Assembly: GCA_964645605.1 (NCBI GenBank)
Contig: CAZYCE010000003.1
Location: 57,135-121,134, forward strand
Source: an uncultured Gammaproteobacteria bacterium
GTDB lineage: Bacteria > Patescibacteriota > Microgenomatia > UBA8517
DNA length: 64,000 bases
Direction: 5' to 3'
How positions within the stretch are numbered: position 1 is the first letter of the stretch; every line of letters starts with the position of its first letter. Below are positions 6,041-52,354 of the stretch, one piece after another. The position numbers and the translations under genes are program-made. The notes below the pieces were generated by a model, which worked only from the letters and a program-made list of their open reading frames with translations, was not told where the DNA came from and made no database searches.

Positions 6041-6412
6041 ATGAACAAAACAATTTTAACTTTAGCAGGTATCGCACTCGGGGTAGGAGCATTATTTGCT
6101 ATCTCTTCAAGCGCGCTTGCCTATAGAGGAGATCCAAATGTTACGGGTCCTAACTACACAGCCGAAAGGCATGAGGCTATGACAAGTGCATTTGAAAATA
6201 AAGACTACAGTGCCTGGAAGGCTCAGGTGCAGGGTAGGGGTAGAGTTGCCCAAGTAGTCAATGAGAGCAATTTTGGCAAGTTTGCCGAAATGCATCAGTT
6301 GATGCTTGACGGGAAAACCGCAGAGGCAAATGCAATTAGAACCGAACTTGGATTGGGACTACAAAACGGTTCCGGCCAAGGTATGGGTTACGGCAGAAAC
6401 GTTAACCGTTAA
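6041..6412 (+). CDS. small secreted protein (signal peptide), unknown function
   Basis: N-terminal MNKTILTLAGIALGVGALFAISSSALA signal-like segment, with a strong GGGGTG RBS upstream. Confidence 0.45.
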   Translation: MNKTILTLAGIALGVGALFAISSSALAYRGDPNVTGPNYTAERHEAMTSAFENKDYSAWKAQVQGRGRVAQVVNESNFGKFAEMHQLMLDGKTAEANAIRTELGLGLQNGSGQGMGYGRNVNR

Positions 6413-6511
6413 AGCCGTATAGCAATTACCGGGACCTCACCTAATAAGTGGGGTTTTGGTAATGGAATGAAGAAAAAAACATGAACGGAATTTATACTAA
6501 AATAGAAAATA

Positions 6512-7057
6512 ATGAAAGACTTACTGAAATTATCGGACGAAAGGATAGTTGAACTGATCCGAAAGAAAGACAAGGAACTCTTTGTTCACATAATAAAGCG
6601 TTATCAGGATAAGCTTATGAGATATGCAAATTATTTGCTGGGGGATGAGCACAAAGCTGCCGATGTCGTTCAGGAGTCATTTATAAAAACCTATATAAAC
6701 TTAAACGGTTTTGATACCAAAAAAAAGTTCAGCAGTTATATATATAGAATTGTCCATAATGAAGCCATAAACTTAATCCATAAGGAAAAAAAACAGGTTT
6801 CGTTATATGAGGGAATTGATTTTGAAAGCGGGATAGACATTGAAGATGAGTTTATTAAAAAGGAGTTGACGGACCGGACCCATAACTGTCTGGGGAAAAT
6901 GCCGGTTATTTACGGAGAGCCTTTATCTCTTTACTTTATGGAGGAAAAATCCTATGAAGAAATAAGTGATATTTTAAGAATTCCGATGGGGACGGTGGCA
7001 ACAAGAATCAATCGTGCAAAAGTTATAATGAAAAAAATATGTCAAAAAATAAAATAA
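6512..7057 (+). CDS. ECF-type RNA polymerase sigma-70 factor
   Basis: Region 2 (YIYRIVHNEAINLIHKEKK) and region 4 HTH (SYEEISDILRIPMGTVATRINRAKVIMKK). Confidence 0.8.
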   Translation: MKDLLKLSDERIVELIRKKDKELFVHIIKRYQDKLMRYANYLLGDEHKAADVVQESFIKTYINLNGFDTKKKFSSYIYRIVHNEAINLIHKEKKQVSLYEGIDFESGIDIEDEFIKKELTDRTHNCLGKMPVIYGEPLSLYFMEEKSYEEISDILRIPMGTVATRINRAKVIMKKICQKIK

Positions 7058-7533
7058 ATTTTGAAAAAGAAGTCATGTCGCGCGTTGCCTCGGGCAAGAT
7101 CGTTATGAAGCCGAAGTGGTATTTTGCTTTAGGCTCGGTTCTTTTACTTTCCGGGACAATTACAGCCTCGGTTGCTGCGGCCTTTCTTGTGAACTTAACC
7201 ATATTTCTTATTAAAAAGCAGGGTCGGGGCTATGGAAAACTTACGATGATGTTTGAAAGTTTTCCTTTCTGGGTCCCCGTTTTGGCAATTTTAGGGATCG
7301 GGGTAGGAATTCTGCTTCTTAGGAAATATGATTTTTCTTACAGGAAAAATTTCTTAGTAGTGATCATCGGGTTTATCGCCTCGGTAGTTATCGCGGGATT
7401 TGTAATTGATTCATTAGGCCTAAACAATACTTGGTCCAAAGGAGGCTTAATGAAGGGTTTTTACCAGGGGATTGAAAACCGGGGCAAAGGCTCCTTACAA
7501 AACGGCCGTGGAGGCAGGTACAATAGAAATTGA
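7039..7533 (+). CDS. membrane protein, candidate anti-sigma factor
   Basis: Overlaps the sigma gene's stop. Multiple hydrophobic TM segments. Function is assigned by position only. Confidence 0.35.
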   Translation: MSKNKINFEKEVMSRVASGKIVMKPKWYFALGSVLLLSGTITASVAAAFLVNLTIFLIKKQGRGYGKLTMMFESFPFWVPVLAILGIGVGILLLRKYDFSYRKNFLVVIIGFIASVVIAGFVIDSLGLNNTWSKGGLMKGFYQGIENRGKGSLQNGRGGRYNRN

Positions 7534-7575
7534 CAGTTATTAATTAGTAATGAATATAAAGGGGGTGAGTACAAG

Positions 7576-8256
7576 ATGAAGAAATTATTATATGTAATCC
7601 CGGTCTTGGCGGTCTTCGGATTGGCTTCTACTGTATATGCTGAAAGTAACGATGTAGGAGCTCAAACGGGACAGGGGACCCAGCAGCAGCTACATACAGC
7701 GTCTCCTTCTCCGACCGGTGTTCAAAATAAAAATCAGGTTAAAACTCAAAATGAGGCAGAGGACTCACAGCTCATGTTGAATACGGAGGAAAAAGAAAAT
7801 CTCGGGGACGAACAGCAAGTCGGCTCGCAAGGCGGCGGCTTAAACACCGAGCATATGAGCGAAGTTGCCAAGCAGGTTCAGGCTCTTCTGCAGGTAAGAA
7901 CAACTGGCGGAATTGGCCAGCAGGTCAGAGAAATCGCTCAAGCGCAAAATCAAGCCCAAATCCAGATTCAGGCACAGTTGGACAAACTCGAATCAAAAGG
8001 AAAATTGGCAAGATTTTTGACGGGTACAAATTTCGAGGCTGTCAAAGGCCTCCAACAGCAAATTGATGCGAATCAGCTAAGAATTCAAGAGCTGACTAAG
8101 CTTGCAACACAGCTTACTAATCAAAGCGATATCGCTTCCGTTCAGGCAACGATACAGGCTTTGATTCAGGAAAATGTGTCTTTACAGGATAGAATTGCGG
8201 CGGAAGTTCAAACCAGAAGTCTATTCGGCTGGTTATTTAGATTGTTTGTCCAATAA
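7576..8256 (+). CDS. secreted Gln-rich coiled-coil protein
   Basis: Signal peptide MKKLLYVIPVLAVFGLASTVYA followed by Q-rich heptad-like repeats. Confidence 0.4.
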   Translation: MKKLLYVIPVLAVFGLASTVYAESNDVGAQTGQGTQQQLHTASPSPTGVQNKNQVKTQNEAEDSQLMLNTEEKENLGDEQQVGSQGGGLNTEHMSEVAKQVQALLQVRTTGGIGQQVREIAQAQNQAQIQIQAQLDKLESKGKLARFLTGTNFEAVKGLQQQIDANQLRIQELTKLATQLTNQSDIASVQATIQALIQENVSLQDRIAAEVQTRSLFGWLFRLFVQ

Positions 8257-17904: not shown

Positions 17905-19014
17905 ATGAATACTGAAAGATTGACTGGTTTGAGGATAAACCCAATCTTGAAAGACTTGGGTGAGGCCTCTTTTCTCTCAGAAAAATATGGTATTCCCCGA
18001 CAGGACATAATATTGACATCCCTCAACCTGTCTGGAGTTTCTTCTGATATTTCAGAATCTCGTGTACGTTTTCATTTTACACCGGAAGGGACGAAAAAAG
18101 ATTTCTACCTTGCTCTTTGTGTTAATACCACCCCCGGTACATTCGAACTCAAGAACCAAGCAATTTTTCTGTCGGGAGAAAAAATAGGCGATACTTCTTC
18201 CATAGAGAATGATACATGTAATGACAATTATTTTAGAAGGAATGGCACTGAATTGACCCTGAATACAAACTCAAGAAGTTTGTGTAAAGGATGCGCAATC
18301 TGTGGAACTTATTCTCTGGAAGCTGATGATAAAGAACGGCTTCTTAGAAAAACATTGCTTTCACAGAGAGTCAAGGAAATCATGAATCAGCAGCAACAGA
18401 ATGATTGCTCAAGCCTTTGCCGTGTAACTCTTTGTACTGGATGCTTTGGGAATGAAAAGGCTACTGTGGATCATATTTTGGATTTGAACGATGTATTAAA
18501 AGATCTTAACTTTCATGGAACCCTACGCTACATAGGCTCCGAAATTACAACAGAAGAAGCTCTTGACGAAATCGCCGGCAAAGTTGATCGTTTTGCTCTA
18601 TCCTTCTCCGTTGAAACCTTTACCAGAAGGGCGGAACTGCTACGCAATATAAAATCAAGATTTTCATTTGAAGACATTAAAAGTGCTCTTGAAAGATCTG
18701 CTGAAAGGGGAATTGAAACCAATATTCTATACGTTTTGGGTCTTGATCCGCTACGCGCTTTTGAGGAAGGCTTTAAAGAACTCCAGCCACTGATGAATCA
18801 TTTCCCTGTTGTTAATTTGTTTCAGATATATAGTCCTGAGCAAGCATTACTTAGAACAAGCGAGGCGAATGGAATTGAATATTATTTAACTGCCAGGAAG
18901 ATCCTAGAGGAGATGTACGCTGGTTCAGACTTAAGACCGGAATCATGGGAAAACTACCGTCCGTTGTGGTATTTATCTTTTGGAAGGGATGGCAAAAATG
19001 ACATCAGAATTTGA
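17905..19014 (+). CDS. Cys-rich protein with CX2CX2C and CX3CX4CX2C clusters, possible Fe-S / radical-SAM-like enzyme
   Basis: SLCKGCAICGTY and DCSSLCRVTLCTGC clusters. Downstream segments (RFALSFSVETF, ILYVLGLD) resemble radical-SAM barrel strands. This is not canonical CX3CX2C. Confidence 0.3.
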   Translation: MNTERLTGLRINPILKDLGEASFLSEKYGIPRQDIILTSLNLSGVSSDISESRVRFHFTPEGTKKDFYLALCVNTTPGTFELKNQAIFLSGEKIGDTSSIENDTCNDNYFRRNGTELTLNTNSRSLCKGCAICGTYSLEADDKERLLRKTLLSQRVKEIMNQQQQNDCSSLCRVTLCTGCFGNEKATVDHILDLNDVLKDLNFHGTLRYIGSEITTEEALDEIAGKVDRFALSFSVETFTRRAELLRNIKSRFSFEDIKSALERSAERGIETNILYVLGLDPLRAFEEGFKELQPLMNHFPVVNLFQIYSPEQALLRTSEANGIEYYLTARKILEEMYAGSDLRPESWENYRPLWYLSFGRDGKNDIRI

Positions 19015-19528
19015 CAGGCCGATAAAAGAGGAAAGTAGAAAAGAGGCAGAGAGAAAATATGTAGAATTACTTATAAATCAGGGGGTCGATTTTGCGACAG
19101 GAGTACCCTGTGGAGTGCAGAAATATGTGATTGAATCACTTTCCTCAAGGCAAGAGGTTGCTCATATTCCGGCAACTCGAGAGTCCGAAGCTATAGGAAT
19201 AGCAGCTGGTGCATACCTTGCAGGCAAGAAACCACTTGTTTATATGCAAAATTCAGGGTTGCTTGAGTGTGTAAATGATATCTCATCATTATTATTGAGC
19301 TATAAAATTCCTGTATTATTATCTGTTTCATGGCGTGGTGCTCCGGGTGAAGATGCACCTCAACATTTTCTTAACGGTACCGCAACACCATTAATTTTGA
19401 AGGATTTGGGAATTTCCCACTTTATTATTAAGAATGATGAACAGGACTCGATTGTTAAAAAAGCCTATGAAGAAATGAAATCTACTCAAAAACCTGTGGC
19501 AATTTTGATTAGAAGGGAGGAATTCTAA
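18980..19528 (+). CDS. sulfopyruvate/phosphonopyruvate decarboxylase alpha-subunit-like protein (TPP enzyme N-terminal domain, ComD/Ppd family)
   Basis: GIAAGAYLAGKKPLVYMQNSGL is near-identical to the ComD/Ppd signature. The likely start is the ATG at 18998, which overlaps the upstream stop. Confidence 0.65.
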   Translation: MEGMAKMTSEFDRPIKEESRKEAERKYVELLINQGVDFATGVPCGVQKYVIESLSSRQEVAHIPATRESEAIGIAAGAYLAGKKPLVYMQNSGLLECVNDISSLLLSYKIPVLLSVSWRGAPGEDAPQHFLNGTATPLILKDLGISHFIIKNDEQDSIVKKAYEEMKSTQKPVAILIRREEF

Positions 19529-19529
19529 T

Positions 19530-20579
19530 ATGGACCGAAAAGAAGCAATTGATACAATTTTCCAAAATCTAGACAAAAATGACGCAGTTATTTCTTCTAC
19601 GGGACTTATAAGTCGGGAGATATTTAAAAGTTATGATAGCGAGAGAAATTTTTACATGGTCGGTTCGATGGGATTGGCTTCTTCAATAGCGCTGGGCGTC
19701 GCATTAAATAGACAAGATAGAGAGGTTTTTGTTATCGAAGGAGATGCGTCGGTATTAATGAACCTTGGTAGTTTAGCTACAATCGGGCATTTTCAGCCAA
19801 AAAATTTAGCACACATTGTTCTGGATAATAAAGCCTATGCATCCTGCAGCGAAGAGCCGTCAGTTTCAACAACGACTGATTTAAGTGAAATCGCTAAAGT
19901 TACAGGCTACAAGAGGATTGCAAGAGTAGATAACTCTACAGATTTGGTTAAAATGTTGTCTGGTGCCGATAAAAGTACTGGGCCTACATTCATATTGGTT
20001 GAGATTGAATTGGGGGGTGAAAGGAATTTACCTAGACCGATGGATTTACCAAAAAATGCAGACAATTTTCGAACATTTTTGTCACAAGTGCCGGAAAGTA
20101 ATTTTGGACACTCAAATATTGAGGTAGAGGGGACTGAACTCATTGAAAAATTTAAAAATACCTTAAAAGACATTTCGGTTTCAAATATAGAAGATTTTTC
20201 CGGTATTGGTATCATTTTATACAATTCGAACGTTCTGCTGGAAAATACTCACACAGACACTCGTTTAAGCACACCTCCACTGAACCATTTCAGGTTAGGA
20301 GAACAAGATTGCTTAAACTTTCTCGCGGATATCTCGCAGCATCGTAATCCATTTCATGACGGTTTCGTTTTCTTTAATGAAAAAGGGGTGTTAACGCATA
20401 TAGCTCAATACTTTGTCCCGTCAGTTGTTCCGGGAATTATCCCCAATGAAAGTGCGGGAATCAGGTTTCATTCGGCAAAATACGGTTCGTTTGTTAACGG
20501 AGTGATAGCAACAGGTGTCGTCAGTCGCAAACAGTCAGCCTATTTTTTCATAAAAGGTGAACAAAATCTTATTAAGTAG
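19530..20579 (+). CDS. decarboxylase beta-subunit-like (TPP-binding, ComE/Ppd family) fused to a C-terminal DAC (diadenylate cyclase)-like domain
   Basis: The N-terminal half carries ISSTGLISRE...NFYMVGSMGLASSIALGVAL...GDASVLMNLGSLATIG...LDNKAY (TPP-binding GDG-like fold). The C-terminal residues ~215-349 carry FHDGFVFF...KGVLTHIAQYFVPS...AGIRFHSAKYGSFVNGVIATGVVSRK. This parallels CdaA LHDGAMIV...RIAAAACYLPLS...LGTRHRAAVGISEVTDSLTIIVSEE. Confidence 0.6.
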   Translation: MDRKEAIDTIFQNLDKNDAVISSTGLISREIFKSYDSERNFYMVGSMGLASSIALGVALNRQDREVFVIEGDASVLMNLGSLATIGHFQPKNLAHIVLDNKAYASCSEEPSVSTTTDLSEIAKVTGYKRIARVDNSTDLVKMLSGADKSTGPTFILVEIELGGERNLPRPMDLPKNADNFRTFLSQVPESNFGHSNIEVEGTELIEKFKNTLKDISVSNIEDFSGIGIILYNSNVLLENTHTDTRLSTPPLNHFRLGEQDCLNFLADISQHRNPFHDGFVFFNEKGVLTHIAQYFVPSVVPGIIPNESAGIRFHSAKYGSFVNGVIATGVVSRKQSAYFFIKGEQNLIK

Positions 20580-21985: not shown

Positions 21986-22648
21986 ATGGATACCCAGTGG
22001 AATAAAATCTACAAACAGAAAAAATTATCTTATGTAAGCAGCCTCTCAACATGGAGTGATATGGTATTTTTTTTACAAAAAAGATCCGCTCGTACCGTTT
22101 TAGATGTGGGTTGCGGCAGCGGCCAACATCTGCTGGATCTGGCAAAAAAAGGCTTTAATGTTTCGGGAATTGATAATTCAGGTGAAGCAATAGCTCTTGC
22201 ACAAAACCTTTTCAAAAAAAATAAACTAAAAGCAAATTTGCTGGTCGCAGACATGCACAAGAAGATTCCGTTTAAAGATAATAGTTTTGATGCGGTCTAC
22301 AGTTTACGGACACTCAACCATGGGGATAGTAAGGATATCGAAAATACTTTTTCTGAGATAAAAAGAGTTTTAAAAAAGAATGGCATATTCTTTTTTACCG
22401 TTCAGAAAATTTTAGGCTTCAGAGACAATCTTGGAAAACATAGGCTGAACAATTTAATCATCAATTTTGTAAAACCACGTACATATATCAAACTCGAAAG
22501 TGACGAAAAAGGCGTCAAACACTTTTTGTTTAATAAAAATATTTTAATAAGACTTTTAAAGGGATACAAAATATTGAAATTTTGGGTTGATTACGGAAAA
22601 CAAGATTGGGAAAAGTATTATTGCGTTCTTGCGGAAAAGATCAATTAA
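21986..22648 (+). CDS. class I SAM-dependent methyltransferase (3 of 3, paralogue of the first)
   Basis: VLDVGCGSGQHLLDL motif I. The C-terminal KGVKHFLFNKN...YYCVLAEK parallels MT1's KGVTHYIFNKK...YYCFLAYK. Confidence 0.75.
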   Translation: MDTQWNKIYKQKKLSYVSSLSTWSDMVFFLQKRSARTVLDVGCGSGQHLLDLAKKGFNVSGIDNSGEAIALAQNLFKKNKLKANLLVADMHKKIPFKDNSFDAVYSLRTLNHGDSKDIENTFSEIKRVLKKNGIFFFTVQKILGFRDNLGKHRLNNLIINFVKPRTYIKLESDEKGVKHFLFNKNILIRLLKGYKILKFWVDYGKQDWEKYYCVLAEKIN

Positions 22649-23271
22649 CTTTGCCTTATACCGTCAAGCCACAGATTAAGCTTTTTGTAAAAAACAGGTT
22701 CCATACCGGTTGAATCCATTTTGCTTTTGACGGACTCAACGAACAAAAATCTTTCAAGTCCGGAGTTGTGGACAATTTCCTTATCTATGGGTCTAACGGC
22801 CGGAATGTTTCCGTCTATACCGTTTTCAAAATGACTTATTGGGAAACTTGCTTTTTCAAGTCCCCTATCCCACGTAGCATCAATTGGAATTTCTATACCG
22901 TTTGACTCGACTTCTAAGGAAAGGTGTAATTGCACGGGCATTAAATCTGCTAATTTTTTTAGATGTATAGGATAATCAACGGCCAAATCCTGCCAGAGAA
23001 ACGGTGTAGTAACATACTTTACCTTAAATTGTTTCTTGGAAAGAACTTCTCCCAGAAAATAATGTTTTGCCGAACAGGCACCCCTTCTGCGCCTGGCAAA
23101 GTCGTCTATGAGTTCATCGTAGGAAAAATGGCGTTCATACTTAATGTGTTCAAATGGGTAGTCCCGTATAAGGACGCACAATCTTGTTAGAGATTCGTCA
23201 TTTTCACCCGTCTCTCTGGACTGCAAATGTCCGGCTGGCTCATTTTCTTTTGGCATATTCGTGAACGGCAT
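22645..23271 (-). CDS. hypothetical protein, possible Cys-His-Asp transglutaminase/NAT-fold enzyme
   Basis: RRRRGACSAKHYFLGEVL resembles the catalytic-Cys segment of arylamine N-acetyltransferase and transglutaminase-like proteins. This is a weak call. Confidence 0.25.
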   Translation of the reverse strand: MPFTNMPKENEPAGHLQSRETGENDESLTRLCVLIRDYPFEHIKYERHFSYDELIDDFARRRRGACSAKHYFLGEVLSKKQFKVKYVTTPFLWQDLAVDYPIHLKKLADLMPVQLHLSLEVESNGIEIPIDATWDRGLEKASFPISHFENGIDGNIPAVRPIDKEIVHNSGLERFLFVESVKSKMDSTGMEPVFYKKLNLWLDGIRQS

Positions 23272-24624: not shown

Positions 24625-25908
24625 TTATTCATAGAACCAATCCCATCCGGGGTTGTCTACTTCAACAATTTTACTTTTTAACATTTTATAAACCCCGTCT
24701 TCCAAAACAGTTTTCCATGTTCCTTCGTAATAATGATCCTCAACCTCACCGTCTACCCAGTTTTTGGTGGAGAATTTTACAAATGCGGTATCTTTTGTAT
24801 TTTCGAACCTCTCCGATTTAATAATATCGACGTCAAGAATATCGGTAAACCTGCCGGTCCACTCTTCAAAATTGGTTTTCTGTAAGTATTCCGTACTAAG
24901 AAGATTGAATCCGTCTTCCATTCTTCTTGCCTTAAGATATGTATAGAAAGCATAAACAGCATCCTCGGGGGATTTTGAAGGATCAACCTGAATTTTTGCT
25001 ATATCGTTATCGGTGAAGTTGGGAATCAAAGTTGAAATATTCTGAGCCCCTATAAATAGGGACAGACCTGCAACTCCCATTGTGTTTACCCCGACAAGGC
25101 TTCCGCATTGGTCAACAAGGGGTCCGCCGCTCATTCCGGGAACAAGACTCATATTTGTTTGGACATACCCGATCGGGTCTTTCCTGGAGGTTCTGTAATC
25201 TATGAAGTTTCCTTTAACTACGGTAGCGTTGCCTACCATATCGGTACCCAGCGCATACCCTGCAGAGATAAGCGGCTCATTGTCGTAAAATCCAAGCTCC
25301 TCGGGTAGGGAATATACGAAATCGGGATATTTGCCGTCGATAAATAGCAGTGCAAGGTCCGTATTTTTATCCCCGATAATTTTCGTAGGAGTCACAATCG
25401 TTCCTTCAGCCAAAATAATTTTTGGACTTGGTTCACCGGCAATCACATGGAAATTTGTTAATACCTGATTTTCACTTATAAAGAATCCCGACCCTTCCAT
25501 ATAACTTCCTTCAATTCTGACAACGGATTTTTTAAGTTTATCCGTTGTCGCGGGACCGCAGAAAATTTTTGCGAATGATCCGTATTGTTTTCTTAAATAA
25601 TCGGCAATTACCACTAGCGAAAAGAAGAGATAGATGATGATAACTACGTACACAATAGATTTCAAAAAGTTTTTGAGGCTTTTGAAAGGATATTTAATGC
25701 AGTCGATGATAAGCCCGATAATGGCAAGGATTAGTTTTATCAAAAACTTGATTAGGTAGTAAAGGGTATAGGTTATAAACTTGATGGGGAAGAGGTAAAT
25801 GGGAAAAAGAAGTTTTTTAAAATAAGCCTTAAGCCTTGAAGTAATATTTTTAAATTTAGACTTAATTTTCCCGGCCAGTCTTTCAAAAATGTCCATGTTA
25901 TTTTTCAA
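24625..25908 (-). CDS. membrane-anchored trypsin-like (S1) serine protease with unassigned C-terminal domain
   Basis: TM helices in the first ~100 aa. Catalytic triad context TNFHVIAG, DLALL and GMSGGPLV. Confidence 0.7.
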   Translation of the reverse strand: MKNNMDIFERLAGKIKSKFKNITSRLKAYFKKLLFPIYLFPIKFITYTLYYLIKFLIKLILAIIGLIIDCIKYPFKSLKNFLKSIVYVVIIIYLFFSLVVIADYLRKQYGSFAKIFCGPATTDKLKKSVVRIEGSYMEGSGFFISENQVLTNFHVIAGEPSPKIILAEGTIVTPTKIIGDKNTDLALLFIDGKYPDFVYSLPEELGFYDNEPLISAGYALGTDMVGNATVVKGNFIDYRTSRKDPIGYVQTNMSLVPGMSGGPLVDQCGSLVGVNTMGVAGLSLFIGAQNISTLIPNFTDNDIAKIQVDPSKSPEDAVYAFYTYLKARRMEDGFNLLSTEYLQKTNFEEWTGRFTDILDVDIIKSERFENTKDTAFVKFSTKNWVDGEVEDHYYEGTWKTVLEDGVYKMLKSKIVEVDNPGWDWFYE

Positions 25909-26653
25909 ATTTTCTTATCGCTTTTCTGTAATTGCAAAAATCGCAATCTTCCCCGGACTCCGGTAGTTTATCCGACTTAAGGCACTCAATAGCTTCTTGA
26001 ACTGTTCCATCCACCCAAGAATCATCCCCTTTATAGGGAATAATTTTAATATCAAACTCAAGTTTTCCGTCAAAAGCCTTTTTGTCTGTTTTTCCGTTGC
26101 AGTAAACAAAGTAGCCTGTTTTTGAAACATCATAACCGTTTTTTCTAAACAGCCATTGGTATATCTCCATTTGCCTTTTATATCCTTTCTGCCAATCGGC
26201 ATCCAAGTTTACTTCATCCTCTTTGGAAGTGGCTTTGTAGTCCACGATAATAAACTCACCCTTGGGATTAACCCAAACATCATCAACCCCTCCGGCTATT
26301 ACGACATTTGTTCCCGGAACATTATATGTAACCCCTCTCTTCATGGAATCCCTCCATTCGTCAATTTTTTCATGAGCGAGGGGAATTGCATCAATTCCGT
26401 ATGTTTCCATTAATGGGTGTTTTGTCCCGTTGGCTCTATGAATGTCAAATTCCTTCTTGAGAAGCTTATCTACGGCGGAGTTAAGCGAAAAAGGATATCC
26501 GGGCGGTTGGGCAACACCAAGTTTCCTATCGAGGTAAAAACAGCGGGGACATTTGATAAAATCATCAACCTTCCCTCGGCTCAATCTAAATGGTGCTTTT
26601 GAATCAGAATCATAAAGCCTCGTTAAACGGTTTGGGTTGTAATATTCACTCAT
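25898..26653 (-). CDS. Cas4-like / RecB-family PD-(D/E)XK nuclease with 4-Cys Fe-S cluster
   Basis: N-terminal CPRCFY and C-terminal CDFC cysteines. GGVDDVWV (motif II), IVDYKAT (D/ExK) and QMEIYQWL (QxxxY). No CRISPR array lies nearby. Confidence 0.6.
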   Translation of the reverse strand: MSEYYNPNRLTRLYDSDSKAPFRLSRGKVDDFIKCPRCFYLDRKLGVAQPPGYPFSLNSAVDKLLKKEFDIHRANGTKHPLMETYGIDAIPLAHEKIDEWRDSMKRGVTYNVPGTNVVIAGGVDDVWVNPKGEFIIVDYKATSKEDEVNLDADWQKGYKRQMEIYQWLFRKNGYDVSKTGYFVYCNGKTDKKAFDGKLEFDIKIIPYKGDDSWVDGTVQEAIECLKSDKLPESGEDCDFCNYRKAIRKFEK

Positions 26654-26680
26654 ATTTATCTTCGGTTACAGTAAGAAGTG

Positions 26681-26872
26681 TCATTTAATTCTTCCTGGAT
26701 CTCCTTTATTTATGTCATGAACAACCCTCTTAACGTAATCATTAATCCATACGTCAATATAGCTTATTGAACTCCCCTTTTTACTTTTGGGTTTGTTCTG
26801 AATATTCTTTATTTTATTTTCAATATTTTTCATCATATTTGTTTTTTTGTTGGGATTATAATACTGTGACAT
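26681..26872 (-). CDS. small hypothetical protein; its N-terminus (MSQYYNPNKK) parallels the downstream nuclease (MSEYYNPNRL)
   Basis: ORF plus the shared N-terminal motif. It may be a duplicated gene-start remnant. Confidence 0.25.
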   Translation of the reverse strand: MSQYYNPNKKTNMMKNIENKIKNIQNKPKSKKGSSISYIDVWINDYVKRVVHDINKGDPGRIK

Positions 26873-27624
26873 CAGGATTCGGTAAACTTGTCTATGACAA
26901 TCTCGGATAAAATATTAAAATATAATAATTCTTTCTGGGTTAATTCATCATTGTGTTGAATTTTATTTCTGTACAAGGCAAGTTCCCGAAGGTGATACTT
27001 ATATTGCAGCGCTTCATCACGGTCTATAAATAGATCGGAAAACATTTCCATGTTTTCCCTGAATATTTTGAAAAAATCCATAATTCCTGCAGCGGATAGC
27101 ACGTCGGATGGATTAGAATAATCAGGCCTCATATGAATATTTCTTTCGTAAATACCAACCAAATCCAAACGGATAGGTTCTGGTATGTGAAGTAACCAAT
27201 GTGTTGAATATCTAACCATGAAATGACTACAAAATGAATTTCTTAATACAGTTTCGAGTGTTGCAATATTCTTTCTGGCAGTTTCGAGAAGAATCAGGTC
27301 TTTTAAATTTAAATTTTTGGGTTTTGTTTTGGAGACGATTATGGCATCCTCACCAGGGTTTCTTATAGACCACCTTATTCCCCCAGACATGAGGACTCTC
27401 TTTTTAAGTAATCCCTTATTTCCCATCTGAATAATAGAGCTTTTTACCCTTCTCTTCATGTTTCCGTACGTTCTTTCTACTCCAAAAACCTTTTTCGCAA
27501 CCGCCGTCACAAGACTTGATTCGTCTCTTTCCCGACCTTCGGAAATTTCCAATAAAATTGCATCCTTAAACGACATCTTCATTCTTTTCATTCTTCTTTT
27601 CCGTGCTTTTCTTTTTTTAATCAT
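26872..27624 (-). CDS. basic N-terminal DNA-binding-like domain protein with C-terminal HEPN-type Rx4H motif
   Basis: N-terminal KRKARKRRMKRMK basic tract. C-terminal ALYRNKIQHN (R-x4-H) in a predicted helical segment. Confidence 0.35.
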   Translation of the reverse strand: MIKKRKARKRRMKRMKMSFKDAILLEISEGRERDESSLVTAVAKKVFGVERTYGNMKRRVKSSIIQMGNKGLLKKRVLMSGGIRWSIRNPGEDAIIVSKTKPKNLNLKDLILLETARKNIATLETVLRNSFCSHFMVRYSTHWLLHIPEPIRLDLVGIYERNIHMRPDYSNPSDVLSAAGIMDFFKIFRENMEMFSDLFIDRDEALQYKYHLRELALYRNKIQHNDELTQKELLYFNILSEIVIDKFTES

Positions 27625-27632
27625 CTATTATT

Positions 27633-28028
27633 TTAGCCAATTTCCTCTTTAATTTTGTTTATACAAAATTGTAAGTTGTCATATATATCGGTTTCCCAAA
27701 AACGAAAGACTTTCCACCCATCTTTTTTTAATTCGTTATTCACTTTTTTATCCCTTTCCATGTTAATTCTGATTTTTTCTTTCCAGAATTTATTGTAATT
27801 GGGTGCTTCCTTGCTATAGTTTCTTCCATGCCAAAAATCACCGTCGCAGAAAATAACAATTTTACTGTCTATTATGACCATATCCGGTTTTCCCGGAAGC
27901 GGAAAATTTTTTTCAAATCCAATTCCCGAAGTATTCAAAGCGGCACCCAGCATTAATTCAATATCCGTATCCTTATTTCTCACCTTTGCCATTAACTCCT
28001 TTCTTTTTTTAATGGAAATTCTATCCAT
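27633..28028 (-). CDS. vsr: very-short-patch repair endonuclease
   Basis: LPGKPDMVIIDSKIVIFCDGDFWHG...WKEKIRINMERD...GWKVFRFWE, the full Vsr signature. Confidence 0.85.
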   Translation of the reverse strand: MDRISIKKRKELMAKVRNKDTDIELMLGAALNTSGIGFEKNFPLPGKPDMVIIDSKIVIFCDGDFWHGRNYSKEAPNYNKFWKEKIRINMERDKKVNNELKKDGWKVFRFWETDIYDNLQFCINKIKEEIG

Positions 28029-28029
28029 A

Positions 28030-29064
28030 TTACTGATTATTATTTATGGTCTTAATTATATTGGCCGCAATTGCTTCAATAACGGGAATTGCCACACTAT
28101 TACCGATCTGTTTCATCCTTTGGTTGGGCGACAGCTGATCAGGAAATTTGAAGTTACTCGGAAAGCCCATCATTGATTTTGCCTCGTCAACGGTGAGTTG
28201 ATGAGGTTTTCTTTTTTTGGAATTCTTTTCGAAGAATAAATAAGAATCCCATGTTCTTTTATCGTTTACCCAAATTTTATTGTCATCGACTCTGATATAA
28301 GAATCGTCTGGCGTTTTGTGTTTATCTAGCCAATTGTTACTTTTATATGCCGAGCCTACACCACCCAACCTAATTGTTCTTCCGACACGATTGGGCCAAC
28401 CCAATCGTGTTATGTCTGACGAGTCCCACTCTTCGTTCAAGTTTTTAAAGAATTCTGATAAGGTAACAGGTTCTTCATGCGTCGGCTTCGGCCACCACGA
28501 ATCATCAGGAGCCGCGCGTAAAACATCTTCCCTAAAACCGACCATGTACACTCTATCTCTTTTTGTGGGGAGTCCAAATTGTGAAGCCTTATAGGTGTGG
28601 ATAGAAATTGGATAACCCGCACTTTTCATTTCGCTTTTAATAAAATCGATTAGTTTGCCGTTGTTTCCATTGGGAATATTAAGTAAGTTTCTGACATTTT
28701 CCAAAAATACGGCTTTTGGTTTTTTTTCGCGAACAATCTGAACAATATATTGGAAAAGTGTTCCTCTGTGATCATCAACTCCTCTTTTTTTACCGACAAC
28801 ACTAAAAGGTTGGCATGGAAATCCCGCACAAACAATATCTATACCTGTGGGGATGCCTCTTCTTACAACGGGATCTTTTATATCACCAAGGAGCTTCGTT
28901 CCTTTAAAGTTTTTTGAATATGTCAAACTCGCTTTATCGTCGATATCTACTGCAAGTACGCATTCTGAGGGTATTCTAAGTTTTTCTGAGGACTGTTTTA
29001 TTCCCAAATGAAATCCACCAATTCCGGAAAAAAGATCAACGAATTGTAATTTGTTCTTTCTCAT
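28030..29064 (-). CDS. dcm: DNA (cytosine-5)-methyltransferase
   Basis: Motif I FVDLFSGIGGFHLG, motif IV GFPCQPFS, ENV motif VI (FLENVRNL) and C-terminal GNSV. Confidence 0.9.
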   Translation of the reverse strand: MRKNKLQFVDLFSGIGGFHLGIKQSSEKLRIPSECVLAVDIDDKASLTYSKNFKGTKLLGDIKDPVVRRGIPTGIDIVCAGFPCQPFSVVGKKRGVDDHRGTLFQYIVQIVREKKPKAVFLENVRNLLNIPNGNNGKLIDFIKSEMKSAGYPISIHTYKASQFGLPTKRDRVYMVGFREDVLRAAPDDSWWPKPTHEEPVTLSEFFKNLNEEWDSSDITRLGWPNRVGRTIRLGGVGSAYKSNNWLDKHKTPDDSYIRVDDNKIWVNDKRTWDSYLFFEKNSKKRKPHQLTVDEAKSMMGFPSNFKFPDQLSPNQRMKQIGNSVAIPVIEAIAANIIKTINNNQ

Positions 29065-29076
29065 GCAAACACCGTT

Positions 29077-29826
29077 TCAACTTAGCTTAGAGAGAAAATC
29101 ACGGCAACCATCAAGTAACTGTCGCATTTGGATGTCACTCATCGAAGAGAGTATTTTATATGATCCGTAATAGTTAAGTTTTTTCATTAATTCACGATAC
29201 TTAAGTTCCCTGCCTGGTTCAAATAATTTAGGGTTGTCCTTCTCAAAATCCAAAATTGAGCTAATCATTTTTTTGTTTTTTCCCTGATATCCTGAATAAA
29301 TTGTCCTTGTTTGATCCAAGTCACGAAAGGCTAATCGCGATAATTCATAAGGGTCACGTCTTTTATTGTCAAAGGTTAAATAAATAATCCACCAAAGTTT
29401 TGAGATCTCATTTCTCATCAAGTCGTTTGCAGAACTATTTTCTACAAACCAATGAGTTAAGACGTGGTTAACCAACTGTTCATTAGTTTTGTGGCTCGAA
29501 GGAACAGGGCTTCTTTTTTGCATATAGTTCCAAAATACCGTGTGTGAAAGACATGACCAAATCCTTGGATCTGTTGCATAATCTGGCTTTAATCCGTGAA
29601 TTTTTTCAAAAAGAATTTTGCCGTTCTCAAACTCGAATTGAGTTTTGTCTTTACCCTCTGGCTCAAGGAGTTTGATATCGTCATCAATGGTAACTGTGGG
29701 GTGTTCCCAAACGCATTCCTCTTTTATCGGAAATGAACTAGCCGAATAAAGGGGCAATGATTTGGAATTTTTCACTGCATCTTTGAGCTCCACCAAGTAG
29801 GCGTTTGTAAAAAGTTTAAGTTTCAT
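29077..29826 (-). CDS. hypothetical protein (candidate cognate nuclease/effector)
   Basis: ORF translationally coupled to dcm. No motif was recognised. Confidence 0.3.
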   Translation of the reverse strand: MKLKLFTNAYLVELKDAVKNSKSLPLYSASSFPIKEECVWEHPTVTIDDDIKLLEPEGKDKTQFEFENGKILFEKIHGLKPDYATDPRIWSCLSHTVFWNYMQKRSPVPSSHKTNEQLVNHVLTHWFVENSSANDLMRNEISKLWWIIYLTFDNKRRDPYELSRLAFRDLDQTRTIYSGYQGKNKKMISSILDFEKDNPKLFEPGRELKYRELMKKLNYYGSYKILSSMSDIQMRQLLDGCRDFLSKLS

Positions 29827-30739
29827 TATATTGTTCGTTTATGCTTTCCTTAGTTGTGAGGGGAATAAGGCCCTCAATACTTATTAATTGCCTTGAAAAA
29901 GGAAGCCTCATTATTAATTGTGAAATTCTTGGTATATCTACAACTTGAAAATCTAAAGAGTCTGTTTCTTCGTTGTAGTAAATAGATAATTTCTCATCTC
30001 TTTTAATCTTGTGTTTAAGCATTTTATACCACGTATATTTTGGTTGTTCTGAGGATTGGTTTATGTATGCCAATATATAATTCAAAACTGGAAATACTAA
30101 CGAACTATGATAAATTGCCGGAATAAATTGATTTCTTCCAAAATAATCGAATTTTTTATGATCTTCGTGGGTCATATAAATTATTATTTTCTGGTTATCA
30201 AAACCGATTTCGAGTGGTTCCGCCTTTCCACCATTTGGATTGTCTACTACAACAAAAAAATTTTTAACTAATTTTGTTGATTGGAAAATTTTCTCCGCCC
30301 AAAAAATTTTTTCATTTGTAAAAGCTAAAATATCACCCGCATCTAAATCAAAACCGTTATCCAAATACTCATCATTAAAATTAGGGCTTTTATATTGGGC
30401 AATAGATGCTGTCGCTACGATAAAAAACTGAATTGCTACCTCCTCCGAAACATCATCCGCAGAGATCATAATTTCTTGAGTTTCACTCTTACTGTTGTAT
30501 GTGCTTCTGTAAATTGTACTTTCACACTGTATATCGACACAAAAACAAGCCTTATCATCTTGTATTAATTTTTCAATTGTCCTCTCAGCAAGATGGTGTT
30601 TGATCTTAAAATTATAAAAATGACCCCCATCTTTTTCTGTTATACTCGTTGCAACCATCCCAACATCATATTCTCCAGCAATGTCGCCCTCCCTTCCTAA
30701 AACTGGATATGGATATGATTTATTAGTCAATATTTTCAT
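29816..30739 (-). CDS. hypothetical protein
   Basis: ORF overlapping both neighbours. No motif was recognised. Confidence 0.3.
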   Translation of the reverse strand: MKILTNKSYPYPVLGREGDIAGEYDVGMVATSITEKDGGHFYNFKIKHHLAERTIEKLIQDDKACFCVDIQCESTIYRSTYNSKSETQEIMISADDVSEEVAIQFFIVATASIAQYKSPNFNDEYLDNGFDLDAGDILAFTNEKIFWAEKIFQSTKLVKNFFVVVDNPNGGKAEPLEIGFDNQKIIIYMTHEDHKKFDYFGRNQFIPAIYHSSLVFPVLNYILAYINQSSEQPKYTWYKMLKHKIKRDEKLSIYYNEETDSLDFQVVDIPRISQLIMRLPFSRQLISIEGLIPLTTKESINEQYNET

Positions 30740-32735
30740 ATTTTGCCTTTAGTCCTAAAGAGTATTTTTCATTGCTTTCAAAATATACAATCAGTTTAAC
30801 TTTTCCTTCATTGTCCGTAACAATATTATGAATTATATTGCCGTTAGTTATTAATGACTTCCCGGATATTTCTTCTGCGCCTGAAATTATTGGTGAGTTA
30901 TAGTCTATGCCGCTTTCGGTACCCCAGCCCAATATTAAATCCAATTTTTTATATTCCTGAAGGTCTAAGTTAATGTTGTATTTCCATTCACCATTTTTAC
31001 TCTTCGTTGCGAATGATCTAAAATCAGCATTCTTTAAGACAACCTCTTCACCTGAATGATTTTCATTACCCCCGTAGCCGTGACCGTGACCGTGGCCGCC
31101 TTCACGAATTAATACACCATTTTTCCCTTTTACACCCATCGTTGACACTGGAATAGTAACTACTGTTCGCCTTTCGAGCTTTTCAATTTCATGAATGTCG
31201 CCGGTGGCTCTGAGTGCGGTTTCTTCATCTGTTGGTTCACCGAATCCTGAATTCTCCATTGATGTGTCAAAACCTGCAAACTCATCGGGATTTTCTATCC
31301 CCAGCATGTCTTCCATTTCGGGTATTTCGCTTTCTTTAACAGATATAGTTTTACCTATCTCTCCCATAAAATCACTAACAAAGTCACGGAGTTCAACTTC
31401 TGCCGCCTCCGCCATCCGTTTTACCTGATCACTTTCTCCTGGTTTAACATAACTTGCCTTCCATTCATTGTGGGGGGCGTTTTCCATTTTGCGTAAAATT
31501 ATATTTCCCTCTCTACTCTCACATACGAATACAGCTGCAAATTTTTGAGGAAAAGCAAATACTTTATTCATAACCACCATTCCGTTATTCCTAACAAATT
31601 GAATTTTATTCTGGAAATCATTATTAAAGGAATAATACATTTTTAAATCGCCAAGAATTGTTGTCTTTTTCATGTACGGTTTTTCTTTATGTTCTGTATA
31701 TGCCCAGAGGTACGGAAAAGGATTCGGTCTAGTTTTGGTATCTGGTTTGTAAGTATCAAAAATCCCAGTTAAGCTTTTACCTAAATTATCCTTATTAACA
31801 ATAATGTCTTCAATTTGAACTTCCAAAAGTCCATCTTGAATTGCTTTCCAAAAATTGTACAGAATTTTTGTTGTCATCAGTTTTTTCCAGAAACCGCTAT
31901 CATCGAAATCGACAACATAAATATCTGTTCCTTGTTTTTCATCTAACCTCCGGAACATATATGGAATCTGATTCTTGGTACGAACCGGTTCCTGATTTTT
32001 TAAACCAAATGATCCACTACCTTGTTTCTTTTTGTTGTTAAAAATATGTGTATTTAAATCTAATAGGCCCCCAAAAACATATTTGTCTGTGTCAAAAATG
32101 CTGGAGTAAAAAAGAGTTCTAAATCCAGATAAATTATAAAAAGAAGCTTTTCCAAGACCCCACGAGCCACCACTTGTTTCACCTTTATTTGTTGATCCCT
32201 CTGTTTTAGCGAAACAGTAGAAATTGCTCTCGAGATATTTGGGGTCATTGGGGTCGCCACTCAAGCCCTGCGTATTATAATCACTAATTTTCAAAATTTT
32301 AATAAATTCATTTTTGGTAATCTTGTCTATGGCATCACCGTAAAATTTCTTTACATTCGGGTCGCGATAATATTCTTGACAAGCCTGGAATATGGATTTT
32401 AGTTGATCTGGGTTGGGAATTTCTTTCGCTTTTATTTTTAATAACTCGAATTTGGCAATTGCAGGGCCTTCCACGTTTTCGTCTTTAGCATCGAGTATGT
32501 TTTGAATAGCTTCTCTGGCCAAAGATTGTCTGGGGTCTTCTAAGAAATTAGATCCAAGAGGCGCATTAAATCCGTCATCTCTTCCATGTCCCAGATCTTC
32601 GAATTCGTAATTTAAATCAGCCATTTTATAATTGGAATTTAACTTTCTTTGTATAAGTAAATTTGGATTTTGCGTTATTTTTTGCCCCATCGATTGCGGT
32701 AAATATCTTTTGAATTTCGGAATCAGTATAATCAT
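30723..32735 (-). CDS. GHKL (Bergerat-fold, HATPase_c) ATPase, MORC/paraMORC-like
   Basis: N-box SLAREAIQNILDA and G2 box GGSWGLGKASF. The likely true start is MADLNYE at about 32624, 1 nt after the stop of the upstream 79-aa ORF. A GHGHGHGYGG low-complexity tract lies in the C-terminal third. Confidence 0.55.
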   Translation of the reverse strand: MIILIPKFKRYLPQSMGQKITQNPNLLIQRKLNSNYKMADLNYEFEDLGHGRDDGFNAPLGSNFLEDPRQSLAREAIQNILDAKDENVEGPAIAKFELLKIKAKEIPNPDQLKSIFQACQEYYRDPNVKKFYGDAIDKITKNEFIKILKISDYNTQGLSGDPNDPKYLESNFYCFAKTEGSTNKGETSGGSWGLGKASFYNLSGFRTLFYSSIFDTDKYVFGGLLDLNTHIFNNKKKQGSGSFGLKNQEPVRTKNQIPYMFRRLDEKQGTDIYVVDFDDSGFWKKLMTTKILYNFWKAIQDGLLEVQIEDIIVNKDNLGKSLTGIFDTYKPDTKTRPNPFPYLWAYTEHKEKPYMKKTTILGDLKMYYSFNNDFQNKIQFVRNNGMVVMNKVFAFPQKFAAVFVCESREGNIILRKMENAPHNEWKASYVKPGESDQVKRMAEAAEVELRDFVSDFMGEIGKTISVKESEIPEMEDMLGIENPDEFAGFDTSMENSGFGEPTDEETALRATGDIHEIEKLERRTVVTIPVSTMGVKGKNGVLIREGGHGHGHGYGGNENHSGEEVVLKNADFRSFATKSKNGEWKYNINLDLQEYKKLDLILGWGTESGIDYNSPIISGAEEISGKSLITNGNIIHNIVTDNEGKVKLIVYFESNEKYSLGLKAKYENID

Positions 32736-32865
32736 ACGAGCTTCTGTTGGATAAATTTCCCAACAACCGCAGGTCGTTTAAAATACGATTTACCCTTCGG
32801 GTTGCCAATCTTTCAAATCTTTGGTGTCTTGTTTCCGACATGTCTATTATATGGGATACTATCAC
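32626..32865 (-). CDS. small basic protein, possible DNA-binding partner of the ATPase
   Basis: 79-aa ORF whose stop abuts the inferred ATPase start. RFERLATRRVNRILNDL helix. Confidence 0.3.
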   Translation of the reverse strand: MIVSHIIDMSETRHQRFERLATRRVNRILNDLRLLGNLSNRSSYDYTDSEIQKIFTAIDGAKNNAKSKFTYTKKVKFQL

Positions 32866-32930
32866 TAAATATAGTATTTGTCAATAGTTATATACATATT
32901 TAATCTACAGAGTATATTTAACAACTTAAA

Positions 32931-33791
32931 TCAACCTAATCCAAACTTTTCTTTTAATGAAGATTCTTGTATTAAATATTTAAAGAATTCCTCAACTTGT
33001 TCAATTCTTACAATTTTAATGAATGGTCTTAGCTCGTGAAAAGTGCCGGAAAGAAGTTCGCTTACTTTCTCGAAATTGACACTATCTACAACTATGAATG
33101 GCTCACTATTCCATAGATCAAATGCATGTTTTAGTTTTGACAATGCCTGATGTGGACTTCCACCAATCTGAACTTCAAAAACTTTAGTCGGAACCCCTCG
33201 TGGGACTCTACGCCATGCAACATCCAATCTTTCACTATCAATCCCGTATTCTTTTTCACTTATAAAATGTTCCATTTGACCGATTTCCGTAAGTTTGTCC
33301 CTAATTTGATTATGTAAAGAAAGCTCGGGAGTCACCGTTTTTATTGGAATCTCCAGTTTGACGGCGTTGATAGTCAAATTGAGTTTGTCCGAAAGCCTGG
33401 CCATTAACTCTTTAACAACTTCTTCCTTACTAACGGGGTTAACTCCCGCCTGTAGACTTAACGATAAGTCATTTACGGCAACGGCGCTTTCTTGCCATTT
33501 TTCGGGAGAAAGAACACCCAAAATTTGAAAATCAAAACGGTACGGATAAATAACACTCTTCGCTCTAATCTCATCGGGCCAGAGCGGTTTATCTTGCTTA
33601 AACTTAGACTCAAGCTTACCGAGACCAATTAACCCTTTTATTGGAGATTTTGCGTAAAAAAGAAGATAATCACCCCTTTCGAGCTTTTTCCATCTGGAGA
33701 CAAGACCACCTTCCCGAACTCCCCAAATATTGCCGTTATTAAATGCCGTTTCCCAATTTTCTTCGTTGCCAGTCAGTATCCAAACTCTCAT
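32931..33791 (-). CDS. EVE/PUA-like domain protein with possible C-terminal nuclease domain (candidate modification-dependent restriction enzyme)
   Basis: N-terminal MRVWILTGNEENWETAFNNGNIWGVREGG...GDYLLFYAKSP matches the EVE fold. The C-terminal D..(VFEVQ)..K spacing is weakly PD-(D/E)XK-like. Confidence 0.45.
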   Translation of the reverse strand: MRVWILTGNEENWETAFNNGNIWGVREGGLVSRWKKLERGDYLLFYAKSPIKGLIGLGKLESKFKQDKPLWPDEIRAKSVIYPYRFDFQILGVLSPEKWQESAVAVNDLSLSLQAGVNPVSKEEVVKELMARLSDKLNLTINAVKLEIPIKTVTPELSLHNQIRDKLTEIGQMEHFISEKEYGIDSERLDVAWRRVPRGVPTKVFEVQIGGSPHQALSKLKHAFDLWNSEPFIVVDSVNFEKVSELLSGTFHELRPFIKIVRIEQVEEFFKYLIQESSLKEKFGLG

Positions 33792-34289: not shown

Positions 34290-34518
34290 TTTTAATCACC
34301 TCCCTTCTTTACCAACAAAAAACCTCTCCGAAAGAGAGGTTTGAAAAAAACATTGCCAGTAAAAAATCGGCCAAATCTTTCCCTTTCGGGCTGGATTTAG
34401 CACCGTAATAAAAAACTTTTTACCCGGTTGCTGAGTGGATCAACGGGCCAGTGCCCTAACCACTACTCTAGATTTTTTGCCTTATGAGGTAATTATAATA
34501 CCAATTCTTCAAATTCTT

Positions 34519-52352: not shown

Positions 52353-52354
52353 AG

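Follow-up and report, generated by a model that had tools for sequence, protein, structure and literature searches.

A PanS-type minimal diadenylate cyclase joined to a decarboxylase subunit in a conserved radical-SAM operon found in bacteria of the CPR and in DPANN archaea

The window considered here is a 64,000-nucleotide stretch of contig CAZYCE010000003.1 (GenBank assembly GCA_964645605.1, positions 57,135 to 121,134), assigned to the Microgenomatia lineage of the Patescibacteriota. An uninterrupted open reading frame (ORF) of 349 amino acids (aa), which occupies exactly 19530..20579 (+) of the window, encodes a true two-domain protein, beta-DAC, in which the thiamine pyrophosphate (TPP)-binding beta half of a decarboxylase of the Ppd/ComDE family is joined to a minimal diadenylate cyclase (DAC) of the PanS type. 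The gene represents a PanS-type DAC that has been recruited into a conserved, uncharacterized operon of ultra-small organisms, both bacteria from the candidate phyla radiation (CPR) and archaea of the DPANN group, in which its companions are a radical S-adenosylmethionine (SAM) enzyme, TPP-dependent decarboxylase subunits and methyltransferases. The evidence set out below points to an unrecognized nucleotide-based pathway and not to phage defense.

The fusion protein

The N-terminal part of beta-DAC is indeed the ComE/Ppd TPP-binding core that an initial annotation, made from the sequence alone, had recognized in residues ~1-190. A Pfam TPP_enzyme_C domain that includes the TPP/Mg motif (Table 1) spans residues 41-155, scoring 60.2 bits (cutoff 21.9), while the sulfopyruvate decarboxylase beta model TIGR03846 scores 159.3 bits. 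The phosphonopyruvate decarboxylase model TIGR03297 covers alpha plus beta together; residues 1-184 of the fusion match its positions 171-360, the C-terminal half only, with 186.9 bits, and the product of the gene directly upstream matches positions 1-155 with 134.7 bits. That upstream gene encodes the alpha subunit, which also matches TPP_enzyme_N (36.4 bits) and the ComD model TIGR03845 (136.2 bits). Equivalog cutoffs are reached in no case (186.9 against 312.5 for TIGR03297, 159.3 against 221.5 for TIGR03846, and 136.2 against 147.95 for TIGR03845). Examination of the gene call in a related locus (L005) and of the junction sequence indicates that alpha likely starts at the ATG at 18998, overlapping the stop codon of the preceding gene. 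A single nucleotide separates the end of alpha from the start of beta, which is preceded by a strong Shine-Dalgarno sequence (GGGAGGAA).

The beta-DAC architecture is not confined to the window. A full-length search recovered it in 12 distinct 90%-identity clusters of 337-375 aa (46-91% identity, at least 94% query coverage), drawn from JGI, ENA, Logan and NCBI; one of these fusions (P0004, 53% identity) occurs in three separate assemblies, from JGI, ENA and Logan, and a metagenome-assembled genome of Parvarchaeota (L008) also encodes the fusion. The remaining matches were stand-alone beta subunits of ~191 aa, and those encoded in nine related loci (189-217 aa; L012, L013, L018, L025, L028, L031-33 and L035) align with residues 1-185 of the fusion. 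CPR metagenomes contain many such free-standing beta subunits. Several related loci carry beta and DAC as separate neighboring genes, as would be expected if an assembly or frameshift artifact had joined two genes in the window, but this reading has a negligible probability and was dropped: the identical protein is encoded in an NCBI contig of 129.6 kb and in two Logan assemblies, the fusion recurs in the 12 divergent clusters and the three P0004 assemblies, and neither of the in-frame TTG184 and GTG187 codons at the domain boundary has a ribosome-binding site ahead of it. The initial annotation had called a fusion of a decarboxylase to a DAC an unfamiliar architecture. A targeted literature search for this architecture or gene cluster returned nothing relevant, and the preprint describing PanS (cited below) likewise contains no description of it, nor any mention of radical SAM, methyltransferase, thiamine, decarboxylase or archaea.

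The C-terminal domain and its active site

On its own, the C-terminal region gives little away. As a single sequence it scores 12.7-14.9 bits against the Pfam DAC family (PF02457), for which the gathering score is 27, and single-sequence scans of NCBIfam and PADLOC found nothing. A word-indexed search returned a sole relative, P0001, a protein of 155 aa with 47% identity. A profile built from these two sequences found PDB entry 37jy, the PanS synthase of a Panoptoo system, at E=8e-18, the next match being CdaA at E=0.29. An exhaustive HMMER search then yielded 240 relatives at E<=1e-3, mostly stand-alone proteins of ~150 aa, and a profile of 80 sequences reached PanS at E=3e-38 and the DacM, CdaA and DisA-type cyclases at E=3.7e-6 to 1e-3. 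The domain has the central beta-sheet braced by conserved helices that characterizes the DAC fold. Sequence, fold and active site alike place it in the DAC superfamily, within the PanS-like branch. This is the fold that the initial annotation had proposed; the strings quoted there are present, and the HMMER alignment sets HDGF (276-279) opposite PLHDGAVIV of CdaA and GIRFH (310-314) opposite GTRHRAAVGIS, as suggested.

PanS proteins are minimal DACs that are active and make 3'3'-cUA, the cyclic dinucleotide of UMP and AMP, or cyclic di-AMP (c-di-AMP); they are the synthases of the Panoptoo/PanDA anti-phage systems (Ragucci, Haley & Kranzusch 2026, bioRxiv 10.64898/2026.08.10.743927; Nabhani et al. 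2026, PMC13640721). Their catalytic motifs are DGF and GGR, and mutation of these abolishes synthesis; in the RePanS structure, the floor of the active site is made up of the invariant residues D71, G72, G107 and R108, and the choice of bases falls to a flexible lid, A86-I93 (bioRxiv 10.64898/2026.08.10.743927). These features can be followed into the window domain by alignment. D71/G72/F73 of RePanS correspond to D277/G278/F279, and G106/G107/R108/Y109 to G310/I311/R312/F313. The PanS lid AQYFSPPI (A86-I93 of RePanS) corresponds to AQYFVPSV at 292-299, with the Gln, the Tyr/Phe and the Pro kept in both subgroups as a QYFxP motif.

The initial annotation had further noted that the canonical DGA and RHR motifs are replaced by DGF and RFH. 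Literally this holds (DGF at 277-279, RFH at 312-314, with the Asp, the Gly and the first Arg kept), but not in the sense of a degenerate or altered enzyme, DGF and G-x-R being native to active PanS proteins. Across 161 family members, in which mean column identity is ~24%, D277, G278, G310 and R312 never vary and H276 and F279 almost never do. The positions that make the second motif look odd (I311, F313 and H314) vary throughout the family, and one fusion relative (P0008) has a literal RHR. Because the PanS catalytic residues are kept and the odd positions vary family-wide, the domain has the active site of a working PanS-type enzyme and does not look like a decayed DAC. Its competence is suggested by analogy with PanS itself, in which the wild type is active and DGF and GGR mutants are inactive.

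A conserved operon centered on a radical-SAM-like enzyme

The initial annotation dealt with the fusion gene and left out both the operon around it, which is centered on a radical-SAM enzyme, and the swapping of fusion partners among its relatives; these are the more interesting result. In the window, the gene for a radical-SAM-like enzyme (rSAMl) is followed by alpha, beta-DAC and three methyltransferase genes (MT1 to MT3), then by a convergent gene for a 208-aa protein and by a histidine phosphatase gene, with gaps or overlaps between operon genes of 1-4 nt.

rSAMl has the partial/full TIM barrel of radical-SAM enzymes and, on the loop after beta1, their three-Cys [4Fe-4S] motif. C127, C130 and C133 are invariant in 67 sequences, in a spacing of CX2CX2C as against the canonical CX3CX2C; C105 and C180 are nearly invariant, and the family has an extra N-terminal domain of ~110 aa. 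No sequence match was found in NCBIfam or PDB. The family comprises ~100 database clusters; the few with a source name are all "hypothetical protein", and none has a functional name.

The 208-aa protein is a recurrent operon member, encoded in the window and in L002, L008, L012, L018, L025, L026 and L035. Weak matches of its family, one to NAT that spans the catalytic Cys (E=0.27) and one to Transglut_core in two of seven members (4e-4), suggest that it is probably an acyl-transferase or amidase of transglutaminase/arylamine-N-acetyltransferase fold. The histidine phosphatase may be an accessory member, its association with the operon being weak: L002/L003 have a copy with 51% identity ~3 kb downstream of their cluster, and the other loci are without one.

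Thirty-five related loci were fetched and annotated by blastp and HMM searches against the window cluster proteins, with Pfam applied to recurrent unknowns. A DAC-like gene lies next to an rSAM-like gene in 18 distinct loci among them. The conserved operon consists of the CX2CX2C rSAM enzyme, TPP alpha, TPP beta, DAC and one to four methyltransferases, with or without a HAD protein, a sugar-isomerase-like TIM barrel and the transglutaminase/NAT-like protein. Within this set, the DAC changes partners. It is fused to beta in the window, L002-4, L008 and L010; to HAD, with beta separate, in L018-20; and to a methyltransferase, following separate alpha and beta genes, in L025 and L028, an architecture found also in P0013. 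In L012, L013 and L035 a stand-alone DAC lies beside a divergent rSAMl-alpha-beta unit. Reduced arrangements comprise rSAMl-DAC-MT (L001, L007, L017 and L021), rSAMl and DAC only (L034), and rSAMl followed by a xylose-isomerase-like TIM barrel and then DAC (L014, L015, L024 and L029). The DAC is absent, within 7 kb, from a distant rSAMl branch of 31-33% identity, which has the order alpha-beta-MT-rSAMl (L031-33, at about 5000-8100 in each). Since DAC is accompanied by rSAMl in the 18 loci while L031-33 keep rSAMl with alpha-beta and lack DAC, the operon has rSAMl as its core and most constant component, to which the DAC and decarboxylase modules are added as separable parts. These two were attached to the rSAM core independently, and the window gene fuses both.

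Other recurrent partners are enzymes too: methyltransferases of the FkbM and class I types, HAD, the AP_endonuc_2 TIM barrel and a radical-SAM enzyme that binds B12. The xylose-isomerase-like TIM barrel (AP_endonuc_2) adjoins the DAC-like gene in five distinct loci (L011, L012, L014, L022 and L029), and the B12-binding radical-SAM enzyme is added at 4634-6019 in L026; neither is present in the window. Directly upstream of the orthologous operon, at 5800-8250 in L002/L003 and at 215-2640 in L004, is a trio of genes that appears similar to systems for ribosomally synthesized and post-translationally modified peptides and is absent from the window; it consists of an ORF of 52-57 aa and the genes for a Radical_SAM protein of 474 aa and a transglutaminase-core protein of 268 aa.

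Hosts that could be named are the DPANN lineages Micrarchaeota, Parvarchaeota and Aenigmatarchaeota and, in the CPR, Nealsonbacteria. Vogelbacteria and Parcubacteria, also of the CPR, have relatives of the beta subunit only, and in a Dojkabacteria genome (L009) a DAC relative occurs alone, with no recognizable partners. The DAC clade is rare and patchy, with ~46 clusters across CPR and DPANN, and homologous gene clusters lie amid housekeeping genes such as TyrS, RecG, NusB, RNase III, FtsZ and FtsH.

Possible role of the DAC domain

We favor, at a confidence that is about evenly balanced, a catalytic role for the DAC domain as a nucleotidyl-transfer or cyclase step in a small-molecule or nucleotide pathway. 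The reasons are that one domain has been fused in turn to three operon enzymes, a Rosetta-stone pattern, and that its most constant neighbor is an enzyme and not a receptor. The DAC domain would then be a working enzyme of the operon's pathway, neither the generator of a defense signal nor a dead binding module. Two DAC domains would pair head-to-head on the obligately oligomeric TPP scaffold and bind two nucleotides or adenosine-containing molecules, and metal-dependent attack of a ribose 3'-OH on the alpha-phosphate of a nucleoside triphosphate would give either a dinucleotide, linear or cyclic, or an intermediate that carries a nucleotidyl group. The rSAM enzyme, methyltransferases and phosphatases might tailor this product or supply the DAC substrate, while the decarboxylase might supply or process a second building block derived from a 2-oxoacid. 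The fusion itself may have arisen by loss of the stop codon between adjacent genes.

More tentatively, we propose that CPR and DPANN organisms share, by horizontal transfer, an unrecognized pathway in which the DAC fold serves as a biosynthetic nucleotidyl-transferase or cyclase alongside a CX2CX2C radical-SAM enzyme, methyltransferases and a Ppd-like decarboxylase. Its product could be a radical-tailored, methylated nucleotide or dinucleotide that acts as a cofactor, an antimetabolite or an inter-cellular signal of these episymbionts.

Several observations weigh against a biosynthetic role. To our knowledge, all characterized DAC-fold enzymes, PanS included, make signaling cyclic dinucleotides, and none is known to act as a transferase in biosynthesis. 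In unfused operons the genes concerned lie side by side, and in the compact genomes of CPR and DPANN their fusion could be near-neutral and prove only co-expression. DAC occurs without alpha and beta in L001, L007, L017, L021 and L034, and alpha-beta-rSAMl without DAC in L031-33, so that neither module strictly needs the other. Alignments of this family, as read here, show no evident counterpart of the Glu that binds metal in canonical CdaA, and the neighbor-joining tree in which context-verified sequences group apart from RePanS and from Cap15-fused PanS proteins is a crude one that carries no support values. In the window, a mobile/defense-like region begins ~1 kb downstream of the operon. 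The proposed role is drawn from sequence and context.

The main alternative, though we consider it unlikely, is a signaling role in which c-di-AMP or 3'3'-cUA, ordinary cyclic dinucleotides, would be made by the DAC domain as a messenger. Substrate or TPP occupancy of the decarboxylase, or its oligomeric state, would gate DAC dimerization, so that the messenger would report or regulate flux through the pathway; such gating might resemble the control of canonical DACs in DisA and in the CdaA-GlmM complex. The products of every characterized DAC, including its closest relative PanS, speak for a messenger, as do the intact catalytic residues and the fact that no second DAC was found in the 64 kb of the window, and fusion to an oligomeric enzyme would fit control through dimer geometry. 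However, no recognizable cyclic-dinucleotide receptor or effector occurs in the window cluster or in the 30 annotated loci, and a domain with three different fusion partners, whose most constant neighbor is the radical-SAM enzyme, is unlike the sensor of one enzyme. The rarity and patchiness of the clade (~46 clusters) also fit poorly with a housekeeping messenger system, and on the same ground a housekeeping c-di-AMP synthase was rejected.

The initial annotation had offered a nucleotide-binding regulatory module or an enzyme with altered chemistry, and of these two the regulatory module is now the less likely option, the PanS catalytic motifs and lid being kept. That the domain is inactive and binds ATP, SAM or a dinucleotide as an allosteric regulator of the decarboxylase would be in keeping with the missing literal DGA and RHR and with the sub-threshold Pfam score of the single sequence, but it is improbable. 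DGF and G-x-R are the motifs of active PanS enzymes, the invariance of D, G, G and R against so low a mean column identity is the pattern of a conserved active site, P0008 has a literal RHR, and the same domain also stands alone or is fused to enzymes that do not use TPP.

Still less can be said for a guard of the Panoptoo/PanDA kind, in which a constitutive decoy dinucleotide keeps a toxic effector repressed, the remaining operon genes being either unrelated or part of a new defense system. PanS is the closest relative with a solved structure, single chains were recovered by the same HMM search that combine a Cap15 receptor with a DAC, and genes for a protease with LmuA-like matches, a PDDEXK protein, a C5 DNA methylase and an EVE-domain protein lie downstream, but this reading is nonetheless highly improbable. 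Cap15_CD_rec matches no gene of the window cluster, no PADLOC model matches any of its proteins, and no CBASS (cyclic-oligonucleotide-based antiphage signaling system) was found in the window, although restriction-modification and mobile genes lie downstream of the operon. A blastp search for PanE, made with one reference only and hence of limited sensitivity, found nothing in 30 related loci, and no Cap15/PanE-like or S2TM-beta protein occurs in the cluster or in those loci. The orthologous clusters lie amid housekeeping genes and not in defense islands, the operon partners are metabolic enzymes, and in the neighbor-joining tree the clade stands apart from PanS and the Cap15-fused sequences. 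A Panoptoo-type defense was accordingly rejected, there being no PanE, the contexts being those of housekeeping genes, and the domain in the window being neither stand-alone nor paired with PanE.

Until now the DAC fold has been associated only with the synthesis of second messengers, with c-di-AMP acting in homeostasis and, since August 2026, c-di-AMP or cUA acting as decoys in phage defense. A clade with intact catalytic residues that is fused interchangeably to three operon enzymes constitutes a third context for the fold, and its setting among enzymes suggests dinucleotide or nucleotidyl chemistry as a biosynthetic step. The operon also defines an uncharacterized radical-SAM family with unusual Cys spacing, and it is one of few multi-enzyme modules of accessory metabolism common to CPR and DPANN, whose reduced genomes keep little that is dispensable. 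With six to eight genes, it is a compact set suited to heterologous expression.

Features of the window

The coordinates of the operon and of other features are collected in Table 1. A run of genes of defense or mobile type occupies 24625-33791 (-), ~1 kb downstream of the operon, and is not conserved beside orthologous operons. It encodes a membrane-anchored trypsin-like protease (PADLOC LmuA and RT-protease-like matches, 1e-11 to 1e-12), a PDDEXK_1 protein, a C5 cytosine DNA methylase, an unannotated 670-aa protein and an EVE-domain protein. An unannotated ORF of 140 aa at 33867-34289 (-) has upstream of it a SAM-I (S-box) riboswitch at 34370-34478 (-), which scores 45.3 bits (gathering score 44.4). 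This riboswitch, like the Shine-Dalgarno usage, marks the host as bacterial.

Table 1. Positions of the operon genes, of the parts of beta-DAC and of other annotated features in the 64-kb window
Feature	Position	Strand	Remarks
rSAMl, divergent radical-SAM-fold enzyme, 369 aa	17905..19014	+	gene callers also start at 17947
Alpha (pyrimidine-binding, TPP_enzyme_N) subunit of split Ppd/ComDE-family decarboxylase	18980..19528	+	directly upstream of beta-DAC
Beta-DAC residues 1-185, beta (PP-binding, TPP_enzyme_C) subunit	19530..20084	+	TPP/Mg motif G71-D72-A73 ... D99-N100
Beta-DAC residues 186-196, linker, low confidence	20085..20117	+	AlphaFold2 (AF2) pLDDT 54, first 10 fragment residues; helix 1 from fragment residue 12
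Beta-DAC residues 197-349 and stop codon, PanS-type minimal DAC domain	20118..20579	+	
DAC element F223/G225/G227		+	
DAC element H276-D277-G278-F279	20355-20366	+	
DAC lid A292-QYFVPS-V299	20403-20426	+	
DAC element G310-I311-R312-F313-H314	20457-20471	+	
MT1, class I SAM methyltransferase, 217 aa	20582..21235	+	Methyltransf_11, 78 bits; orthologs in related operons, including DAC-MT fusions L025/L028 and P0013
MT2, class I SAM methyltransferase, 249 aa	21232..21981	+	4-nt overlap with MT1
MT3, class I SAM methyltransferase, 220 aa	21986..22648	+	
Convergent 208-aa protein	22645..23271	-	Cys66/His116/Asp131 invariant (alignment); recurrent operon member
Histidine phosphatase, 207 aa	23352..23975	+	His_Phos_1, 144 bits
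Type I phosphodiesterase/nucleotide pyrophosphatase	34781-36049		
AAA_14+DUF4143 ATPase	38973-40157		
Methyltransferase-GT2 fusion	41829-43271		
Fic protein	44671-45801		
Glycan cluster	49492-54736		three GT2 genes and NTP_transferase
rve integrase	57065-57952		insertion sequence (IS) element
tRNA-Gln	58690-58761		CTG
tRNA-Glu	62896-62971		CTC

Comparison with known systems

The canonical DACs (CdaA/DacA, DisA and DacM/CdaM; PF02457) share only ~16-23% identity with the window domain, which falls below the Pfam gathering score. They have DGA and RHR where the window domain has DGF, RFH and a longer lid loop, and they come with a membrane anchor, the HhH domain of DisA or a GlmM/CdaR partner, none of which accompanies the window domain.

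PanS is closer. It shares with the window domain a DAC core of ~150 aa, DGF, G-x-R where canonical DACs have RHR, an Arg followed by an aromatic residue, a lid of the form AQYFxPxI and the invariant D/G/G/R, although Ser90 of the PanS lid is Val here and G107 is Ile. The settings differ. PanS stands alone, has PanE (a Cap15-like S2TM-beta protein) as its partner, lies in CBASS neighborhoods and occurs in Proteobacteria, whereas the window domain is fused to a TPP decarboxylase subunit, has neither PanE nor a CBASS neighborhood, and belongs to a type found in CPR and DPANN within an operon of biosynthetic-type enzymes. Among the relatives, five proteins of 371-407 aa (P0058, P0069, P0077, P0083 and P0138) carry a Cap15 cyclic-dinucleotide receptor at the N-terminus and a PanS-like DAC at the C-terminus, and these look like PanE and PanS fused into one chain, effector plus synthase. 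Outside the rSAM-associated clade, a PanS-like DAC is also joined to a calcineurin-like metallophosphoesterase (P0087, 441 aa) and to an RrnaAD-like methyltransferase (P0059, 384 aa).

For rSAMl, the nearest structural group is that of HydG, ThiH, NosL, BioB, LipA, PylB and MqnE, at ~10-17% identity; these enzymes carry CX3CX2C, in contrast to CX2CX2C in rSAMl.

The split Ppd and ComD/ComE enzymes have, like the window, adjacent alpha (TPP_enzyme_N) and beta (TPP_enzyme_C) genes and the TPP motif; the window subunits score below all the equivalog cutoffs for these enzymes, and the window beta has an extra domain, apparently of catalytic type. The motif EDKxxxxxNS is diagnostic of phosphoenolpyruvate (PEP) mutase (Ppm; Rice et al. 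2019, PMC6697681). Translation of the window and the 35 loci in all six frames (387 kb) did not reveal it, on which ground phosphonate biosynthesis was rejected, although a pepM gene might lie farther off in the genome, and the PEP_mutase Pfam model matched none of the neighbor genes scanned, among which ComA, ComB and ComC were not recognized either. Phosphonopyruvate is an unlikely substrate of the decarboxylase.

Phosphonate gene clusters nevertheless offer a parallel in function. More than two-thirds of them contain nucleotidyltransferase domains, which are fused to ~60% of PEP mutases, as in Fom1, FrbH, PhpF and PntC (PMC6697681). Their pathways have the PEP mutase that the window and loci lack, the fold of their transferase domains is MobA-like or cytidylyltransferase-like and not DAC, and the nucleophile is a phosphonate oxygen, not a ribose 3'-OH. 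What these proteins (Fom1 in its CyTase-Ppm form among them) have in common with beta-DAC, as a functional analogy, is a nucleotidyl-transfer domain fused to an enzyme of a pathway that contains Ppd. In the fosfomycin pathway, moreover, a radical-SAM methyltransferase, Fom3, acts on the nucleotidylated intermediate.

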